A DNA stretch of 64,000 nucleotides from Minisyncoccota bacterium (GCA_041651415.1 JBAZJH010000002.1:111075-175074); one strand, 5' to 3'; positions 1,452 to 55,208 are shown, counted from the first letter of the stretch. Program-made: numbers and translations. The notes: generated from the sequence alone by a model not told the origin.

Positions 1452-1459
1452 TAGCACAA

Positions 1460-1497
1460 TCCCCTGTCTCATATAAAATGAGGCAGGGGATTTTTTG
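1460..1497 (+). terminator. intrinsic terminator
   Basis: GC hairpin tcccctgtctc-loop-gaggcagggga followed by TTTTTTGTTT. Confidence 0.6.
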
Positions 1498-1536
1498 TTT
1501 GTTCGGAAGTTCGGCAATTGCCGAAGGAAAGGCAAA

Positions 1537-2012
1537 TTTGTTTCACGTGAAACAAATAAATTATATTATCAATAAGATAATAATGTATTTCTTCGACAAA
1601 CTCAGAAAGTAAGTCGAGTGTTTGACGTGAAACATTGTTTTTTATGATTGTTTATTTATGCGGTTTTTTATAAATAGTGTTTTACGTGAAACACTATTTT
1701 TATTTTTTAGGCAGTTTTAATGTTTAACGTGAAACATTGTAATTGCCTGTTTTGACGTTTCACGTGAAACAATTTTTTAGAATTGGCTTATTTATGAGAA
1801 TATCCGGTTAAAAATTAAAGAGAAGACAAAATTTAAATATTTTTAGTGTTTTACGTGAAACATTAAAAAGGAGAGAAAGAAGGTTTTTGAGGTGTTTTAA
1901 TTGTTTCACGTGAAACAATATTATAGATATCCTTTATTTATGCGGATATCGGGTTTCTTTTTTGAGTGATATAATGATTTTAAGATAGTTTTAATGTTTG
2001 ACGTGAAACATT
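1537..2012. repeat. parS: array of 8 parS (ParB/Spo0J-binding centromere) sites, each matching TGTTNNACGTGAAACA
   Basis: Eight 16-20 bp palindromes at about 1537-1556, 1617-1637, 1675-1696, 1721-1740, 1757-1776, 1844-1867, 1900-1919 and 1993-2012. Two are the perfect consensus TGTTTCACGTGAAACA; the rest differ only at position 6. Irregular 33-93 bp spacing. Confidence 0.7.
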
Positions 2013-2015
2013 GCA

Positions 2016-2414
2016 ATGGCTAAACATATAGAAATAGGACGAAAAGGAGAAGAAATCGCTTGTGGATATCTTTTAAAAAAAGGGTATAAGTTGGTAGAAA
2101 GAAATTATCGAGAAAAATATGGAGAAATTGATATTATCGCTATAAATAAGGCTAAAATCTTAGTTTTTGTTGAGGTTAAAACATTAAAAATAGCGAATAT
2201 TGCCGAAGTGGATAATTCGGCAAAATTGGGGATAACTCCGGAAGATAACCTAACGGGAGTAAAATTGGCTAAAGTTAGGAGAACTGCTGAATTCTATGCC
2301 AATAGCCATCCGGAATTTATAAAAGAGGGAAAAGGATGGCAAATAGATCTTCTAGCGATTTTTTCAGAGGAAGAAGGCAGATATTTAATAAGGCATTATG
2401 AGAATGCGTCATAA
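2016..2414 (+). CDS. YraN family (UPF0102) putative endonuclease
   Basis: 132-aa protein with the YraN pattern ...GEEIACGYLLKKGYKLVERNY...GEIDIIA...VFVEVK. Confidence 0.65.
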   Translation: MAKHIEIGRKGEEIACGYLLKKGYKLVERNYREKYGEIDIIAINKAKILVFVEVKTLKIANIAEVDNSAKLGITPEDNLTGVKLAKVRRTAEFYANSHPEFIKEGKGWQIDLLAIFSEEEGRYLIRHYENAS

Positions 2415-7120: not shown

Positions 7121-7708
7121 ATGAATTTAATACCAACAGTTATAGAAAAAACAAGCGGAGGAGAAAGGGCTTACGATATTTATTCAAGATTGCTTAAAGA
7201 AAGAATAATTTTTCTTGGCGGACCGATAAACGACGCCATAGCCAACACGATAATCGCTCAATTAATACTTCTAGAGCATGAAGACCCAAAGAAAGACATA
7301 AAGCTTTACATCAATAGCCCAGGCGGGTCAGTGACGGCAGGAATGGCAATTTATGACACGATGCAAATAATAAAGCCGGACGTAACAACTGTGTGCGTGG
7401 GAATGGCAGCTTCAATGGCGGCGGTATTGCTTGCGGCTGGAAAAAAAGGAAAAAGAATCGCTTTGCCAAATTCAGTGATTTTACTGCATCAGGTGATGGG
7501 AGGAGTGGAGGGACAAGCGACAGAAATAGAGATAACCGCAAGACAGATATTAAAAATCAAACAAAGATTAAATGAGATTTTAGCGAAACACACCGGACAA
7601 TCCTTATCTAAAATAGAGAAAGACACAGACCGAGATTTTTATATGAGCTCAGAAGAAGCAAAAAAATACGGAGTGATAGATGAAATAATAAAGAGTAATA
7701 AGAAATAG
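7121..7708 (+). CDS. clpP: ATP-dependent Clp protease proteolytic subunit
   Basis: [56 protein letters not shown] is canonical ClpP with the catalytic Ser context. Confidence 0.9.
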
Positions 7709-7732
7709 GGAACAGAAAGGTAAAAAAATCTA

Positions 7733-8167
7733 TTATTCTAAAATCGGTTTAATGACAACATGACGCATTTTTCCTTCGCCTTCGCTTTCAGTTTTAATAT
7801 CGGGGCGCATGGCAAGTTCCATATGAATAAGACGCCTTTCGTAAGAATTCATAATAGGGAGAGCAATAATGTCCTTAGTCATTAAAGCTTTTCTCGCGGC
7901 GGCTTTAGCCAGTTCGGCAATTATTTTTTCTCTTTCCAAACGATAATTATTGACATCGACAGTAAAAGCAGGGGAGTTCAATCTTCGGCTAACCAGCTGA
8001 CCAAGAAGATTAAAGTTTTCAATAATTCCCGGAATGTTTTTTTTGATTAAAGGGTCTTCGCTTAAAAAAAGACTGAGGCGGCGGCCTTCTTCATTTATTT
8101 CAACGCTAAATTCACCGATGTTCATCAGTCTTAAGAGTTCCTCGAAGATTTTCTTTATCTCGGTCAT
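7733..8167 (-). CDS. jag: Jag/KhpB-like R3H-domain RNA-binding protein
   Basis: C-terminal R3H motif (YERRLIHMEL); located downstream of yidC as in the classical rpmH-rnpA-yidC-jag cluster. Confidence 0.7.
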   Translation of the reverse strand: MTEIKKIFEELLRLMNIGEFSVEINEEGRRLSLFLSEDPLIKKNIPGIIENFNLLGQLVSRRLNSPAFTVDVNNYRLEREKIIAELAKAAARKALMTKDIIALPIMNSYERRLIHMELAMRPDIKTESEGEGKMRHVVIKPILE

Positions 8168-8864
8168 TTTTTTTAAGAGAATTATTGATAATTATCTGTT
8201 GAAGAGAAGAAAAGATGGAAGTGGTTATCCAATAAAGCCCAACAACGGAAGGAAGGCTATAGAGAATAAAAAAGGTCAAAAAAGGACCGATTAAAACCAT
8301 CTTTTTCCCTAAATCCTCCGCCGGGTTTTGTGATTTACCGCGAGAAGCGGGAAGACTTAGCCAGCCTTGAAAGTATTGAAAAGCAGCCGCTAAGACAACA
8401 ACAATAATACTAGGTTCTTTTAAATTTATCAAGCCAAGAAAAGAAAAATTAAAACTTTCCGGCTTAGGAACAAAAGAATAGAGGAGGGAAAAACTATCAG
8501 TTGAAGAAAGCCCATAATAAAAAACGTGAAAAAGGGCTAAAAGAATAGGGAGCTGAATCAGCAAAAGAAGAATGCCGGAAAAAGGATTAATCTTATTTTC
8601 CTTATAAATTTCCATTATTCTTTTTACTTGCTCCTCTTTATTATCTTTGAAATTATCAGAAATTTCTTTTATTTTAGGCTGAATTTTTTGAATAATAGCC
8701 TGATTTTTACTGCCTTTATGAAAAAGAGGGAAGAGAATTAAGCGAATAAAGACAGTTAAAAGAATAACCGCCAAACCAAGGTCTTCAAAAGAAATAAAAT
8801 CATAAATAAAAACTAAAGCGTTTAAAAGAGGACGATAAAGAAATTCATTATATAAAAAGGACAT
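8112..8864 (-). CDS. yidC: membrane protein insertase YidC/Oxa1 family
   Basis: 250-aa polytopic membrane protein adjacent to rnpA; YidC-like core helices. Confidence 0.8.
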   Translation of the reverse strand: MSFLYNEFLYRPLLNALVFIYDFISFEDLGLAVILLTVFIRLILFPLFHKGSKNQAIIQKIQPKIKEISDNFKDNKEEQVKRIMEIYKENKINPFSGILLLLIQLPILLALFHVFYYGLSSTDSFSLLYSFVPKPESFNFSFLGLINLKEPSIIVVVLAAAFQYFQGWLSLPASRGKSQNPAEDLGKKMVLIGPFLTFFILYSLPSVVGLYWITTSIFSSLQQIIINNSLKKNDRDKENLRGTLKTDEHR

Positions 8865-9611: not shown

Positions 9612-10976
9612 ATGGATCTCGAAAAGATTTGGGAAACAGTTTTGGCAGAAATGGAAATAAATATTTCTCACGCTAATTTTCATACTTGGCTAAAAAACAG
9701 CAAATTAATCAATAAAGACGAATCAGGAAACTTCGTGGTAGCTTTGCCAACTAATTTTTCCAAAGAGTGGGTGGAAAATAAATATCAAAAGAATATTTTA
9801 CATATTTTGAGAGATTTAGACAGCCAGGCCAAAAAAATAGATTTTGTGGTACAGGGAAATATATTTAATTCAAACCAAAATCAGAAAACTTCAAAGGGAA
9901 GTTTCAGCCCAATTCCAGCACAAATGGCTTTTCCAGAGTTTAAAGTGGACCCGGAAACAAATCTAAATCCAAAATACACTTTTCAAAATTTTATAGTCGG
10001 TTCATCAAATGAACTGGCTTTTGCCGCAGCGCAGGCAATAGTCAAAGAAGTGGGGTCAAAATATAATCCATTGTTTTTTTACGGGGGAGTGGGTTTGGGA
10101 AAAACCCATTTAATTCAAGCAATCGGCAATGAAATAATAAAAGATTATAAAAACAGTCTGAAAGTAAGATATGTGACTTCAGAAAAATTTACCAATGACG
10201 TGGTTTGGGCAATAAAAAACAAGAGAATGGAGGATATAAAGAAAAAATACAGAGATATAGACATTTTAATAATAGACGATATCCAGTTTATAAGCGGAAA
10301 AGAAAAAACACAGGAAGAATTTTTTCATACCTTTAATTCTTTATACGCTTTAAATAAACAAATAATCATATCTTCAGACAGACCACCGCATGCTTTACCA
10401 ACACTTCATGAAAGATTAAGGTCAAGGTTTGAAGGAGGAATGACGGTTGATATAATTCAACCCGATTATGAGATGAGAGTGGCGATAATAAGCACAAAAT
10501 TACAAGAGTGCAAACATGAATTACCCAATAAAATAATAGGGATAATAGCCGGAAAAGTAAGTGAAAATATAAGAGAAATAGAAGGTTTATTAAATAAACT
10601 TATTTTTATAAAGGAAAATAAAGGGGTAGAAATAGATGAAGGGATAATAAACGAGGTAATAAATAAAAATACGCAAGTAAATAAAAATATAAACCCGAAT
10701 AAAATAATAAAAGCAGTGGCAGATTTTTTTGAAATTTCCATAAATGAATTAATAGGAAAATCAAGAAAAAAAGAGATTGTGGAACCGAGACAAATAACAA
10801 TGTTTTTACTTCGAAACATATTAAACACATCTTTTCCTTTTATTGGGGATAAGATGGGGAAGAGAGACCACACAACTGTGATGCATGCCTGTGAAAAAAT
10901 AAACAAAGAAATGGAAAAAAATATCAATACCAGCCAGAAAGTTAATTTAATAAAAGAGTCGATATATAAAAGTTAA
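9612..10976 (+). CDS. dnaA: chromosomal replication initiator protein DnaA
   Basis: Walker A GGVGLGKTHL, AAA+ core and a C-terminal DNA-binding domain; followed by dnaN. Confidence 0.95.
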   Translation: MDLEKIWETVLAEMEINISHANFHTWLKNSKLINKDESGNFVVALPTNFSKEWVENKYQKNILHILRDLDSQAKKIDFVVQGNIFNSNQNQKTSKGSFSPIPAQMAFPEFKVDPETNLNPKYTFQNFIVGSSNELAFAAAQAIVKEVGSKYNPLFFYGGVGLGKTHLIQAIGNEIIKDYKNSLKVRYVTSEKFTNDVVWAIKNKRMEDIKKKYRDIDILIIDDIQFISGKEKTQEEFFHTFNSLYALNKQIIISSDRPPHALPTLHERLRSRFEGGMTVDIIQPDYEMRVAIISTKLQECKHELPNKIIGIIAGKVSENIREIEGLLNKLIFIKENKGVEIDEGIINEVINKNTQVNKNINPNKIIKAVADFFEISINELIGKSRKKEIVEPRQITMFLLRNILNTSFPFIGDKMGKRDHTTVMHACEKINKEMEKNINTSQKVNLIKESIYKS

Positions 10977-32188: not shown

Positions 32189-32314
32189 TTATTAAATCTC
32201 CGCTTCAAACTTCGCGCGCTATCTTAAGGGGTTTGAAGCGGTAAAGATTTAATAAACCCACGCCTAGGGCGGGGTGAAACTTGAAGAAACCACGGCCGTA
32301 AGGCCGTGGAGTTT
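32189..32314 (-). repeat. copy B of the ~125-bp MITE/REP-like repeat (inverted orientation), abutting the ileS stop codon
   Basis: Reverse complement matches AAACTCCACGGCCTTACGGCCGTGG...CACCCCGCCCTAGGCGTGGGTTTATTAAATCTTT...GAGATTTAATAAA. Confidence 0.7.
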
Positions 32315-35300
32315 TATTTTAGAGAAACAGAGATTTCGCCGAAGTTTTCAAAAGGGGAGGTTTTATTGATTCTTTGAGTATTAGCTTTTGAATAAAAGAT
32401 TTTTTTAAGGGAGCAGGCGGAACAGATTTCTTTTTCTTTGGCAGAAAAAATAGAGGAAAGATTTTCGGGAGCGGATTCAATATAAAGATTAACAAGCTCA
32501 CCAGGCTTTAAGTCGGCTTCACCGCGGAGAGATTGAATAAGGCGGATGAATTCACGAACGAGGCCTTCGGATTTCAATTCGGGAGTGATATTCAAATCAA
32601 GCCAAACTTCTTTTTTGTCAGGAAGATTATTTTCGAAAGATACTTTTTTAACGTTGACTTCGTCTTTTAGAATTTCGAGAAGATTGGCGGATATTTTTTC
32701 CGCTGATTTTATTTTCATTTCAGAAAGAGGCTGACGGACTTTGATGCCTAAAGCAGAGCGTTCGGCAAGGCCGAGGCTGGACCAATCTTTTACAAGAGTC
32801 ATTTCTTTTAAAAGCTTTTCGTTAAATTTTTCAGCTTTTGGCCAAGAAGAAAGATGAACGGAATTTTTGAAACCGGATTCTTTTTTAAGGGAATTAAGGG
32901 AGAGATAAAGATAGTCGGAAAAGAAAGGCGCAAAAGGAGCCATAATTTTACTTAGGGCGAGGAGAGAATTATAAAGGGCAAAAGAAGCGTCAAGGCGGTC
33001 CCGACCGAAACGTCGGGACAAATTGCCTGAAGCGATTTGAAACCTTGAGCGGGAACGGCGGATAAACCAGCGGGAGATATCGCTTAAAAGTTCTTCAATT
33101 TTTCTGCCAGCCGGAGGAATGTCATATTTTTCAATAAGTTCTTCCGTTTCTTTTATGGTTTTAGAGACGCGGGAAGTGAGCCATAAATCCAGAGGATTAG
33201 TGAATTTTTTTACTGACCCAGAAAGAGAGCCGTAAGTTTTCAAATAAAGAAGGCAATTTTTGACGATATTAAAAACATTAAGCGAGACTTTTTTTAGGTC
33301 GTCCTCGTTAAAATTTTTAGTTTCACCAGCGTCGTTTAAAGTGAAAAGATACCAGCGGACAGAATCGGCGCCGTATTTATCAAACATTTCCCAAGGGTCG
33401 ACGATATTGCCGCGGGACTTGGACATTTTTTTGCCGTTTTTGTCGTTGATCAAGCCAAGAGAAATGACGTTTTTATAAGGAGCGCCTTTTTCAAGAAGGG
33501 TGGAGATGGCAAGAAGAGTGTAGAACCAGCCGCGGGTTTGATCCATAGCTTCCGAAATATAGTCGGCAGGGAAAATTTTTTTCTTATCAATCAGGTCCTT
33601 ATTTTTGAAAGGATAACCAGAGGCGGCAAAAGGCATAGCGCCGGAATCAAACCAGACGTCGACAAGTTCCGGAATTCTTTTCATTTTTTCGCCGCAAGAA
33701 CAAGGAATTTTGATTTCATCGATAAAAGGGCGGTGCGGGTCAAGAAATCCGTCGTCGTTTAAAGGAATATTTTTAAAAGGCAGAGGTTTCCATTCGGCAT
33801 TTTTCAGAAAAAAATCTTTAACTTTAAGATTGTTTCCGCTTAAAGATTCCGCGAGAACGCGAAGAGGGTCTTCGTGCCCGACGATGAGAATATTTTTGCC
33901 GTCATATTTTTTGTCGATTTCTTTCAGAGCTTTCATTATTCTTTTTCTGACTTGATTCAGATTTTCTCCGTTTGCCGGGGACTGCTCGTATTTTTCTTTA
34001 AAAGAAGAAAAAAGCTTTTTGTAAGAAGAAGCGGATTTTTCATTTAATTCTCCAAAATCGGTTTCGCGAAGACGTCTGTCAAAAATTAAAGTTTTTATTT
34101 TCAGGGATTTTTTGATAATTTCGGCGGTTTCTTTGGCTCTTTTTAAGTCAGAAGAAAAAATAATATCGATATTCAACTTCTTTAATTTTTCGGCGGATTT
34201 TTCAACTTGAAGACGGCCTTTTTTAGTAAGAGAATTGGCTGTTTTTTCAGGCCAAGAGGAATTGAATTTGTTTTTATTAGAAAGAGCTTCGCCGTGGCGG
34301 ATGGCAAAAAAAGAGTTTTTTGAAGGAAGGGGAGAATCGGCGAGCTCTTTTAAAGAGCTGATTATTTTTTCTTGTCCGCATTTATGGCATTGCCAGATGG
34401 GAAGAGGTGTGCCCCAATATCTTTCTCTTGAGAGCGCCCAATCTTTGATGTCTTTCAGCCATTCGCCAAAACGGCCTTCTTTGATGTGAAAAGGAATCCA
34501 GTTGATTTTTTCGTTATTTTTTAAGAGAGCGTCTTTTAAAGAAGACATTTTAATAAACCAAGAGGAGCGGGCGAAATAAATGACCGGAGTGTCGCAGCGC
34601 CAGCAGAAAGGATAGTCGTGCTCGTAAAGATTTTCCGACAAAAAGAAATTATTTTTTTTCAAATAAGCAATTATTTTTTCTTCGGTTTCTTTTGATTTAA
34701 CGAAAAGGCCGGACAGTTCCGGAACAAAATCTTTAAAGTGACCGGACTCGTCGACGGTATGAACTTCGGGGAGACCGACTTCTTGGCCGAGGCGATAATC
34801 ATCTTCGCCATACATAACGGCGGTGTGGACGACGCCGGTGCCGTCAGTCGTTGTGACAAAATCGGCGGGATAAACCTGATAAGATTTTTCTGATTGCAAT
34901 TCTTTTATTTTGAAAAGAGGTTCGTATTTTAAGCCAACCAAGTCGGCGCCGGAAAATTCTCTAATTTTTTCTCCAGTAAAAATATTTTTATCAGAAAGAG
35001 GAGAAGCAATAAAGGCTTCTTCGCCATCAACAGACTTTAAAAGCGAATACTTTATTTTTTTTCCGACAGCTAAGGCGACGTTTCCGGGAAGAGTCCAAGG
35101 AGTGGTGGTCCAAGATAAAATAAAAGTTTTATTGCCGATTCTAAAGTCGCCGATTTTTTGGCCGGGAAGGAGCTTAAACTTCAAAAAAACAGAATTGTCT
35201 TTAACGATTTTATAACCTTGGGCAAGTTCGTGGCTGGAAAGACCGGTGCCGCAGCGAGGGCACCAGGGAATTATTTTGTGTCCTTGATAGAGAAGATTTT

Positions 35301-35823
35301 TTTTATAAATTTCCGAAAGAAGCCACCAAACGCTTTCAATATATTCTGGCTTGTAGGTGATATAAGGATTTTCAGTATCAAGCCAAAAACCCATTCTGCT
35401 TGTGAGATTTTCCCAGAGTTCTTTATATTGCCAAACGGAAGCGCGGCATTTTTCGTTGAATTTTTTTATGCTTTCCGTTTTATCTTTCGGAACCAGATTT
35501 TCAATCTCTTTTTTGCTTTTCAAACCGAGTTCTTTTTCAACCTGGAGTTCAACCGGAAGGCCGTGTGTGTCCCAGCCGGCTCGGCGGGGAACATTGAATC
35601 CGCGCATATTTTTGTAGCGGCAAATGATGTCTTTATAAGAACGGGCTAAGACATGATGAAGACCGGGTTTGCCATTTGCGGTCGGGGGACCTTCGTAAAA
35701 AACGAAGGTTTTGTTTTTGGCGTTTTGTTTAAGGGATTTTTCAAAGATTTTTTCTCTTTCCCATTTAGCGAGGATTTCTTTTTCAAGTTCGGGCAGGCTT
35801 TTATTTTTTTTTTCTTCCGACAT
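32314..35823 (-). CDS. ileS: isoleucyl-tRNA synthetase (type 2) with a ~170-aa histidine-phosphatase (PGAM-like) domain inserted at about aa 500-670
   Basis: HIGH-type PGLHHV, KMSKS, CP1 editing domain, zinc-knuckle halves WQCHKCG ... IPCSCGEKM. Between them: AIRHGEALSN (RHG motif), RETDFGEL, ILIVGHEDPL - a histidine phosphatase superfamily fold. Confidence 0.9.
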   Translation of the reverse strand: MSEEKKNKSLPELEKEILAKWEREKIFEKSLKQNAKNKTFVFYEGPPTANGKPGLHHVLARSYKDIICRYKNMRGFNVPRRAGWDTHGLPVELQVEKELGLKSKKEIENLVPKDKTESIKKFNEKCRASVWQYKELWENLTSRMGFWLDTENPYITYKPEYIESVWWLLSEIYKKNLLYQGHKIIPWCPRCGTGLSSHELAQGYKIVKDNSVFLKFKLLPGQKIGDFRIGNKTFILSWTTTPWTLPGNVALAVGKKIKYSLLKSVDGEEAFIASPLSDKNIFTGEKIREFSGADLVGLKYEPLFKIKELQSEKSYQVYPADFVTTTDGTGVVHTAVMYGEDDYRLGQEVGLPEVHTVDESGHFKDFVPELSGLFVKSKETEEKIIAYLKKNNFFLSENLYEHDYPFCWRCDTPVIYFARSSWFIKMSSLKDALLKNNEKINWIPFHIKEGRFGEWLKDIKDWALSRERYWGTPLPIWQCHKCGQEKIISSLKELADSPLPSKNSFFAIRHGEALSNKNKFNSSWPEKTANSLTKKGRLQVEKSAEKLKKLNIDIIFSSDLKRAKETAEIIKKSLKIKTLIFDRRLRETDFGELNEKSASSYKKLFSSFKEKYEQSPANGENLNQVRKRIMKALKEIDKKYDGKNILIVGHEDPLRVLAESLSGNNLKVKDFFLKNAEWKPLPFKNIPLNDDGFLDPHRPFIDEIKIPCSCGEKMKRIPELVDVWFDSGAMPFAASGYPFKNKDLIDKKKIFPADYISEAMDQTRGWFYTLLAISTLLEKGAPYKNVISLGLINDKNGKKMSKSRGNIVDPWEMFDKYGADSVRWYLFTLNDAGETKNFNEDDLKKVSLNVFNIVKNCLLYLKTYGSLSGSVKKFTNPLDLWLTSRVSKTIKETEELIEKYDIPPAGRKIEELLSDISRWFIRRSRSRFQIASGNLSRRFGRDRLDASFALYNSLLALSKIMAPFAPFFSDYLYLSLNSLKKESGFKNSVHLSSWPKAEKFNEKLLKEMTLVKDWSSLGLAERSALGIKVRQPLSEMKIKSAEKISANLLEILKDEVNVKKVSFENNLPDKKEVWLDLNITPELKSEGLVREFIRLIQSLRGEADLKPGELVNLYIESAPENLSSIFSAKEKEICSACSLKKIFYSKANTQRINKTSPFENFGEISVSLK

Positions 35824-54871: not shown

Positions 54872-55208
54872 TGGTGCCGCGAGAGGGAATCGAACCCCCG
54901 ACACGATGCTCTTCCAAATAATGAATCTCAAATTACTTTGAGGATTGGACTATATCATCACCCATATAAATGGGGCTAGGCGCTTCCTCCAACCTAACGT
55001 CGGAGTACTCCGTTAAGGATAGTCTCTGAACCTTTCTAGCTCCAGTTCATAAAAAAACTGGGGCTGGACTTGGCTGCTGATTGCCCAGCTTCAGTTTTTA
55101 AAAAAACTGAAGCTGGGTTTCCAGCAATTCACCTAGTTTTCATTTCCAAATTACTTCGGAACGGCCCAAAGAGTTTAGGCATCTGCTCTACCACTGAGCT
55201 ACCGCGGC
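54872..55208 (-). tRNA. tRNA-Phe (anticodon GAA) interrupted by a group I intron in the anticodon loop; exons at 55177-55208 and 54872-54914
   Basis: 5' exon GCCGCGGTAGCTCAGTGGTAGAGCAGATGCCT and 3' exon GAAGAGCATCGTGTCGGGGGTTCGATTCCCTCTCGCGGCACCA join to a canonical tRNA-Phe (loop CUGAAGA, variable loop GUGUC). Confidence 0.7.
54915..55176 (-). ncRNA. group I self-splicing intron (262 nt) within tRNA-Phe
   Basis: 5' splice after U33, with exon GCCU pairing to a GGGC internal guide near the intron start. The intron ends in G. The core contains CAGAGACTA ... ATATAGTCC, matching the P7 strands of characterized group I introns (cf. Tetrahymena CAGAGACUA / AUAUAGUC). Confidence 0.65.

Follow-up and report, generated by a model that had tools for sequence, protein, structure and literature searches.

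A non-coding stretch of a 64,000-nucleotide segment of a Minisyncoccota genome (GCA_041651415.1, JBAZJH010000002.1:111075-175074; the whole segment is called the window here) carries a tight array of eight 16-bp palindromes matching parS, the site recognized by the chromosome partition protein ParB. The stretch is bounded on the left by a terminator that follows a 68-aa Cys-rich open reading frame (ORF) and on the right by yraN, 3′ of which lie nusA, an H+-pyrophosphatase gene, tig and clpP. After clpP, on the opposite strand, come jag, yidC, rnpA and a 61-aa ORF without a Pfam match, and then dnaA and dnaN. The dnaA start is at position 9612, 7.6 kb off the array. A preliminary description of this DNA, made from the sequence alone, had placed the array in non-coding DNA between a small ORF and a YraN-family gene, about 7.6 kb from dnaA, and this placement was confirmed. 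The host is a metagenome-assembled genome (MAG) of Candidatus Paceibacterota, a tiny-genome groundwater bacterium of the Candidate Phyla Radiation (CPR)/Patescibacteria whose name now falls under the phylum Minisyncoccota. Its NusA is 100% identical to an NCBI protein from a ‘Candidatus Paceibacterota bacterium’ MAG, and among named relatives Liptonbacteria and Wolfebacteria come nearest by this protein.

At a tolerance of two mismatches, the consensus TGTTNCACGTGAAACA is matched eight times at 1539-2010, a span of 472 bp, whereas dinucleotide shuffles predict 0.07 chance matches in the entire window (Table 1). No further match was present outside the array in the 64-kb window at the same threshold. 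The earlier count of eight parS-type sites in less than 0.5 kb thus holds, as do the two sites reported as perfect (1539 and 1902). The other six each carry one mismatch, and these had all been assigned to position 6; five are indeed found there, but the sixth (site 1756) differs at position 1. The C at position 6 is replaced by G, T, A, T and G in order, on the same arm each time, and in three sites position 6 faces G11 as G-G or A-G. The remaining 14 positions are invariant across all eight copies, and each site retains one intact GTGAAACA arm (GTTTCAC half-site). Start-to-start spacings are irregular, at 80, 59, 43, 35, 91, 55 and 93 bp. The same-arm bias of the five variants was set aside as evidence (p = 0.06), since descent through duplication accounts for it.

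Table 1 Features of the array and its borders, in window coordinates
Feature	Position	Strand	Remarks
Intrinsic-terminator-like hairpin	1458..1492	+	15-pair stem, then T run; closes the 68-aa ORF; left limit of non-coding stretch
16-bp perfect palindrome	1510..1525	.	TTCGGCAATTGCCGAA; single copy in window; left border of array
parS site 1	1539..1554		TGTTTCACGTGAAACA, perfect
parS-like site 2	1619..1634		TGTTTGACGTGAAACA, position 6 C>G
Interleaved motif, partial copy	1651..1663	+	TTTATTTATGCGG; repeat family D5
parS-like site 3	1678..1693		TGTTTTACGTGAAACA, position 6 C>T; palindrome continues 7 bp each side
parS-like site 4	1721..1736		TGTTTAACGTGAAACA, position 6 C>A; pairs with site 5 at 35 bp
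parS-like site 5	1756..1771		CGTTTCACGTGAAACA, position 1 T>C; 14-bp core perfect
Interleaved motif copy	1787..1809	+	CTTATTTATGAGAATATCCGGTT; long gap between sites 5 and 6; repeat family D4
parS-like site 6	1847..1862		TGTTTTACGTGAAACA, position 6 C>T
parS site 7	1902..1917		TGTTTCACGTGAAACA, perfect
Interleaved motif copy	1931..1955	+	CCTTTATTTATGCGGATATCGGGTT; long gap between sites 7 and 8
Extended -10-like box	1967..1975	+	TGATATAAT (TGnTATAAT); 20 nt upstream of site 8; read from sequence
parS-like site 8	1995..2010		TGTTTGACGTGAAACA, position 6 C>G; 5 nt to yraN ATG
yraN	2016..2414	+	UPF0102, PD-(D/E)xK endonuclease family; PF02021, E 1.6e-19; adjoins array in clade

An independent ENA assembly (L001; designations of this form denote the assemblies, contigs and loci compared) is base-for-base identical to the window over 1400-2100, indicating that the array is not an assembly artefact. 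A Logan contig (L002), which begins inside the array, agrees with the window over the part that it covers. The array is also a break point for short reads, with contigs of three independent assemblies (L002, L205 and L206) ending inside it; the L001 contig begins at the upstream tRNA (window 984). On the practical side, short-read assemblies can be expected to break predictably at the array.

Orthologous loci were collected by a NusA metagenome scan together with look-ups of closer NusA homologues, and the percentages that follow give NusA identity to the window. The preliminary description had suggested such a comparison; it shows the array to be retained in relatives and the cores of its sites to differ, which for a chromosomal centromere would be unusual. 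An array of 6-8 sites with similar spacing lies upstream of yraN/nusA in the closer relatives. L205 (87%) has four perfect sites within the 196 bp left on its contig. L207-L209 (72%), three independent samples one single-nucleotide polymorphism apart over 610 bp, carry eight perfect parS at the corresponding place, in the order Wzy, tRNA, small ORF, TTCGGCAATTGCCGAA, array, yraN, with the final site ending 5 nt before the yraN ATG. Upstream of nusA, L210 (69%) has six sites (cores CACGTG, AACGTG, AACGTT and CACGTT) and L125 (68%) has eight (cores including GCCGGC, GTCGTT and GTCGGC). The seven sites of L211 (68%) follow the pattern GTTT-RYCGRY-AAAC. At 59-61% identity, two to five sites are found just upstream of yraN in L136 (core CGCGCT), L139 and L130 (both TCCGTA) and L141 (GTCGCT/AGCGCT). 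CA(T/C)(A/G)TG cores occur in and around yraN in L144, L165 and L151, and GTGAAAC half-sites are scattered upstream of yraN in L134. In the more distant L170 and L187 perfect 16-mers are dispersed, and one falls within the 3′ end of nusA. Such dispersal is classical for chromosomal parS and implies a ParB in the lineage. In L125 yraN itself is reduced to a remnant at ~800-900, where GGGGATATCTTTTATAAAAATGGGTATAAC matches the 5′ coding sequence of the window yraN, and the eight-site array upstream is intact.

Alignment of the window with L207 gave 92 of 96 identical columns (96%) where site falls on site and 180 of 346 (52%) elsewhere, a difference that points to purifying selection on the sites and none on the spacers. 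Across 55 array sites from 10 genomes, gathered by a search that fixed nothing but GTTT-N6-AAAC, 54 have T1, 53 have A16 and 54 have the central CG; positions 6, 7, 10 and 11 are variable. Some aligned sites have changed symmetrically on both halves (CACGTG in L210, GCCGGC in L125), which would fit a dimeric reader or a structural constraint. Spacing also has a recurring pattern: two sites lie 33-35 bp from each other, and a gap of 82-114 bp comes next (L207: 35, 100, 64, 35, 93, 35 and 101; L211: 60, 44, 34, 82, 34 and 83).

Two further motifs accompany the sites, and both are conserved in relatives, so that the earlier report of two interleaved motifs stands as to their existence, with their coordinates in part corrected. 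The 12-bp palindrome CGGCAATTGCCG is located at 1512-1523 rather than 1518-1529, inside the longer palindrome TTCGGCAATTGCCGAA, and the copies of TTTATTTATG lie where Table 1 places them. TTCGGCAATTGCCGAA occupies the matching left-border place in L207-L209 (L207 722-737) and in L139, and is found as TTCGGCAAATTGCCGAA in L211. Six of eight related loci show an excess of CGGCAA/TTGCCG half-sites in the 260 bp upstream of the array (2-8 copies, against 0.1-0.5 expected), with clusters of up to eight at L136 1640-1730, L139 9300-9440 and L141 9170-9260. The interleaved motif (TTTATTTATG... or TATTTATGCGG...GGGTT) is kept as TATTTA(T/A)GC...GG(G/T)T in the long gaps of six genomes: the window, L205 (~113-140), L207 (1019), L211 (2685), L125 (647) and L210 (9651). 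A mini-ORF within it was rejected because its ATG is missing in L205 and it is therefore not conserved. A 53-nt unit made up of a site and the interleaved motif is repeated 146 bp apart in the window at 81% identity, which indicates that the array has grown by duplication. Many sites also sit in longer palindromes with flanks peculiar to each site, several of them perfect and 30 bp or longer. Flank complementarity within the same site scored 149, as compared to 126 ± 7 for cross-site pairings (p about 0.001). Long palindromic flanks of this kind are absent from the regular parS arrays of Bacillota.

The frequency of dense arrays was assessed by a scan of GTDB, one genome per species, for triplets of parS-like cores within about 120 bp, which returned at least 120 loci. 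Those listed include Collinsella, Streptomyces, Planctomycetota, Lachnospiraceae, Bacilli, Flavobacterium and Bradyrhizobium, and no CPR genome is found among the 120. The typical density among the matches listed is three sites per 500 bp; L047 and L077 reach 6, L038 reaches 8 and L058 reaches 10. A ParB gene is present in 78 and a ParA gene in 79 of the 120 listed loci (8 kb each). Dense chromosomal parS arrays thus exist elsewhere and go with ParB. The statement that parS sites are ‘clustered in plasmids, dispersed in chromosomes’ (PMC5450999) describes a tendency only. As to individual arrays, L058 (5384-5894, uncultured Bacilli) has ten 55-bp repeats between dnaX and a deaminase gene adjoining gyrA, and L038 (1014-1353, Lachnospiraceae) has eight 46-bp repeats upstream of parA-parB. 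The array of L077 (6325-6709) lies between mnmG and rsmG with a period of about 57 bp, that of L047 (7246-7498) follows mnmG-rsmG with a period of 34 bp, and L024 (5922-7979) has ten sites over about 2 kb after gyrA, with at most five per 500 bp. These five loci come from MAGs of uncultured Bacilli, Lachnospiraceae and Eubacteriales, and no description of natural regular tandem parS arrays was found in a literature search.

The same 120 unrelated loci supplied a sample of natural parS variation (496 sites with at most two mismatches; 992 half-sites). Variation amounts to 21% at position 1 and 6.4% at position 5, as compared to 0.3% of half-sites with C6 replaced. The position-6 variants of the window are not ordinary parS degeneracy. 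Together with the drifting cores in the relatives, they suggest a relaxed or co-evolving specificity.

The array resembles several known systems and differs from each. The ParB(Spo0J)-parS systems of Bacillus subtilis, Caulobacter crescentus, Corynebacterium glutamicum and Myxococcus xanthus use the same 16-bp TGTTTCACGTGAAACA, with several dnaA-proximal sites per chromosome, and dispersed perfect sites, even in genes, are likewise found among the relatives studied here. Unlike the sites of those systems, which extend over kilobases to hundreds of kilobases, the eight sites here fall within 472 bp, with no parAB nearby, with position 6 altered in five of eight, and with two extra conserved motif types and long palindromic flanks. 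The tandem arrays of L058, L038, L077 and L047 share the density (6-10 chromosomal parS per 500 bp) and the proximity to dnaA, gyrA or rsmG. Their repeats are regular, near-identical and perfect, pointing to recent duplication, and lack long palindromic flanks, whereas the Paceibacterota array is irregular, older, variable in its cores and conserved across relatives with 68-87% NusA identity. sopC of plasmid F (12 x 43 bp) and the parS of P1 with its IHF site are similar in having many sites in less than 0.5 kb and, for P1, composite motifs; the array studied here differs in its housekeeping flanks, its irregular 35-93 bp spacing, the lack of rep/par genes and the chromosomal-family sequence of its sites.

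Two systems offer precedents for the altered sites. The Bsr ParB/parS systems of Burkholderiales secondary replicons have a T-rich 5′ arm, a central CG and a variable 6-bp core, and they include an asymmetric parS repeated identically (PMC5450999). Like the present sites they are 16 bp long, clustered and variable in core between systems. Their diversity, however, separates replicons that reside in one cell, each cluster beside its own parAB, whereas here diversity is seen between orthologous chromosomal loci, and within the array in L125 and L211, with no adjacent par genes. In vivo, a lone GTTTCAC half-site is enough for binding by the ParB of Pseudomonas aeruginosa (PMC10419367); a perfect arm is kept by every window site, and L134 has its scattered GTGAAAC. 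The P. aeruginosa half-sites occur all over the genome and spreading does not start from them, whereas the imperfect sites here are concentrated in one array. The drifting cores have a precedent in the Bsr families and the tolerance of one altered arm in half-parS binding.

Universal parS in the window and its closest relatives, dispersed parS in distant ones, selection on the sites and the association of tight clusters with parAB lead us to conclude that the 472-bp array is probably a clustered chromosomal centromere, on which a ParB-family CTPase clamp would be loaded at high density. We infer the binder, and the steps that would follow binding, from the established ParB mechanism: ParB dimers would recognize each 16-bp site, bind CTP, close as a clamp and slide onto the flanking DNA on the yraN-nusA-dnaA side. 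A single partition complex would form, most likely to load SMC, and ParA may be dispensable. The array itself would have expanded by local duplication of a unit of ~146 bp, consisting of a site pair and a spacer with the second motif, after which selection would have retained the sites only. The reader of this clade would tolerate, or co-evolve with, changes at positions 6/7 and 10/11 and would insist on T1-GTTT, the central CG and AAAC-A16. The centromere interpretation predicts a single TGTTTNNCGNNAAACA array, or a small number of sites, close to the minimum of the skew curve. It is also possible, and is offered more tentatively, that the clade possesses a positionally fixed composite centromere, with CGGCAA-type borders, 6-8 T-GTTT-NN-CG-NN-AAAC-A sites and interleaved TATTTAWGC...GGGTT, whose core hexamer has been rewritten between and within genomes; its chromosomal ParB would then have relaxed or co-evolving specificity and would probably be a ParA-free SMC loader with partner proteins on the accessory motifs.

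Neither ParA nor ParB was found in the 64-kb window by motif regular expressions, by hidden Markov models (HMMs) from 78 ParB and 79 ParA, by Pfam on about 40 ORFs or by hhalign of unannotated ORFs, bearing out the earlier remark that parA and parB are absent from it. Likewise, neither the window nor the gene calls covering the next 10 kb on its right include ParA, ParB or SMC, and an HMM search of 80 related nusA-centred loci (L125-L204) yielded no ParB or ParA. Published Parcubacteria gene tables place parB near dprA, and a regular-expression search found no DprA in the CPR loci examined. Among orthologous groups, COG1475 is the one that we take to be that of Spo0J/ParB. Of 17 Parcubacteria genomes, 13 have it and 14 have SMC (Nelson & Stegen 2015, Table S1, PMC4508563), where COG1475 bears the old label ‘predicted transcriptional regulators’; no entry for COG1192 (ParA) is found in the supplementary files of that paper. 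These counts appear consistent with a ParB-SMC role without a core ParA. No study of ParB or parS in CPR, Patescibacteria, Saccharibacteria or Parcubacteria was found in a literature search.

Several observations weigh against a centromere. No ParB or ParA was found, although this is weak evidence because the window and the 80 loci represent one genomic neighbourhood. C6, replaced in five of the eight window sites, is near-invariant in natural parS, and to our knowledge no characterized chromosomal ParB binds the cores TCCGTA, CGCGCT or RYCGRY seen in relatives. The long site-specific palindromic flanks are not required by ParB binding. Finally, no strand switch in GC skew is seen around the array or dnaA that would support proximity to the true origin: the skew is positive throughout the window, on either side of both, and likewise in the relative L210. 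The array had been called ori-proximal, and with this skew the claim stands only as proximity to dnaA. In both genomes dnaA lies away from the skew switch (window 9612 within 1-64000; L210 15333 within 1-21347), and the origin may be more than 10-15 kb upstream of dnaA. An origin of replication at the array was also considered and rejected, as the DnaA-box-like TGTGGATAT beside it is conserved yraN coding sequence and neither skew nor gene orientation switches there.

The position of the last site raises the question of a role in yraN expression. Its closeness to the yraN ATG had been noted, with a gap of 4 nt; the closeness is real, and the gap, from the end of the site at 2010 to the ATG at 2016, is 5 nt. 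The distance from the yraN start is 5-22 nt in six genomes (the window, L207, L205, L141, L130 and L211), and in L144 the site overlaps the start. At the counterpart of site 8, position 6 is C in L207 and L205 and A in L125. It had been argued that, with no room for a Shine-Dalgarno (SD) sequence, ParB may gate yraN. This argument fails, since an SD-like motif is found in only ~10 of 39 window genes. Short-leader, SD-independent initiation is suggested as the norm among window genes, and in many of the 39 the start codon has a TATAAT no more than about 20-25 nt away. A GATATAAT box is present in L205 at the position matching the -10-like box of the window, right beside the last site. From this arrangement site 8 would appear to lie in the early transcribed region of yraN, where its occupancy could hinder transcription. 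In a centromere such dampening may be a secondary effect of site 8 occupancy.

A more extensive regulatory role would make the array an operator for a regulator of yraN, and of the divergent dksA-like gene or comM in relatives, with a KorB-like ParB-family repressor or an unrelated dimeric helix-turn-helix protein tuning competence or recombination genes. The position of the last site, in or near the yraN start in all seven genomes named above, and the TGnTATAAT box just 5′ of site 8 agree with this, as does the finding that the array fills the region between yraN and a divergent DksA/TraR-type gene in L136, L139 and L141, with ComM beyond it in L141 and a ComM-like fragment in L139. GTTTAGCGCTAAAC of L141 may resemble the RK2 KorA/KorB operators. 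YraN is reported to work with ComM in D-loop processing during transformation, as an endonuclease acting on single-stranded DNA (ssDNA) (bioRxiv 10.1101/2024.02.06.579203). Seven or eight sites over about 480 bp nevertheless exceed what a promoter needs, exact universal parS occurs in close relatives, and SD-less starts are normal here. The array is, moreover, retained in L125 and L210, where yraN is decayed or absent, which makes it more than a yraN operator and regulation at most a side effect; we consider an operator unlikely. YraN itself was rejected as the binder of the sites, given its reported role as an ssDNA transformation endonuclease and the persistence of the array where yraN has decayed (L125).

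The palindromes might instead act as structures, either as ssDNA hairpins or extruded cruciforms in replication or transformation or as RNA in the yraN leader, with a GTTT/AAAC stem and the hexamer as loop. Such structures would explain why flank complementarity is site-specific and above the cross-site control, why several palindromes of 30 bp or more are perfect although their flanks are unique, and why the variable positions are central, at the would-be loop, with symmetrical changes in L210 and L125. A stem, however, demands complementarity and not a fixed GTTT, and the CG of the would-be loop is kept in 54 of 55 sites, with T1 and A16 nearly as constant as reported above. The G-G or A-G oppositions at G11, the inconsistency of the T runs 3′ of the palindromes and the lack of any Rfam covariance model match in 1400-2100 at gathering thresholds also speak against it, and extended palindromes may arise by mutational quasi-palindrome correction. 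A structural role is accordingly judged improbable. Least plausible, with only a slight chance of being correct, is a decaying relic, in which an ancestral eight-site parS array like that of L207 has been eroding without function after loss or change of ParB. The perfect sites of L207 and L205, set beside six of eight altered in the window and more in L125, would agree with erosion, and ParB is unseen in the window. Yet neutral decay would affect all positions, and the changes in the window are confined to position 6 (five times) and position 1 (once), with 14 positions fixed amid spacers diverged by about 50%; T1, GTTT, CG, AAAC and A16 stay fixed across 10 genomes.

Other classes of repeat were rejected on their layout. 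Arrays of tandem interspaced guide RNA (TIGR), which are associated with CPR, have two alternating 8-12-nt repeats, 9-nt spacers and an adjacent Nop-domain tas gene (PMC12045711); spacing here is irregular (35-93 bp) and a Nop-domain gene is absent. Repetitive extragenic palindromes or bacterial interspersed mosaic elements (REP/BIME) do not fit either, because all eight GTTTNNCGNNAAAC matches of the 64 kb lie in the array and the 10-kb extension has none. Clustered regularly interspaced short palindromic repeats (CRISPR), integron attC sites and uptake sequences were ruled out by spacing, copy distribution or motif orientation. The array had first been likened to a plasmid-type centromere or a ParB super-site. 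The sites are real, selected parS-type sites, and the latter remains the best reading. A plasmid-type element has the same density (many sites in less than 1 kb; eight in 472 bp here), but 8-10 sites per 500 bp also occur at unrelated chromosomal loci, and membership in a plasmid or secondary replicon was rejected because the flanks (tRNA, yraN, nusA, H+-PPase, tig, clpP, jag, yidC, rnpA, dnaA and dnaN) are syntenic with relatives and contain no par genes.

Chromosomal parS is commonly treated as a near-invariant marker dispersed around the origin, and changes in ParB-family specificity have mainly been studied through the Noc paralogue and the multi-replicon systems of Burkholderia. Here a single clade presents, at one chromosomal address, a series that runs from eight perfect parS through single-arm position-6 variants to rewritten cores. 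It is chiefly this comparative series that is of interest, and less the window alone. With matching ParB sequences, the locus would be a direct test bed for the co-evolution of a centromere and its reader, and it bears on chromosome organization and segregation in ultra-small CPR cells.

The remaining observations concern the surroundings of the array and other parts of the window. Several relatives have, upstream of the array, a gene for a DksA/TraR-type zinc-finger protein of ~100-120 aa, divergent in L136 (1202-1546, -), L139 (8952-9278, -) and L141 (8778-9143, -) and co-directional in L211 (1582-1887, +); in L141 it is backed by comM (7209-8729, -) and in L139 by a ComM-like fragment. The window has its unrelated 68-aa Cys-rich ORF at this place. 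In L171 (9531-9982), a small ORF just upstream of nusA is flanked by clustered AATTTTCAA/TTGAAAATT repeats, which have no relation to the parS-type sites and occur also at L144 3219-3791 and L173 1573-1632. Farther into the window, a 1169-aa ORF (32314-35823, -) resembling class I tRNA synthetases contains a histidine-phosphatase (His_Phos_1) domain at residues 507-678, between tRNA-synt_1/1g matches; such a fusion or insertion is unusual. At 54926-55186 (-) lies a full-length group I intron (RF00028, 110 bits), in a region with four tRNA genes and, according to ARAGORN, outside any tRNA.

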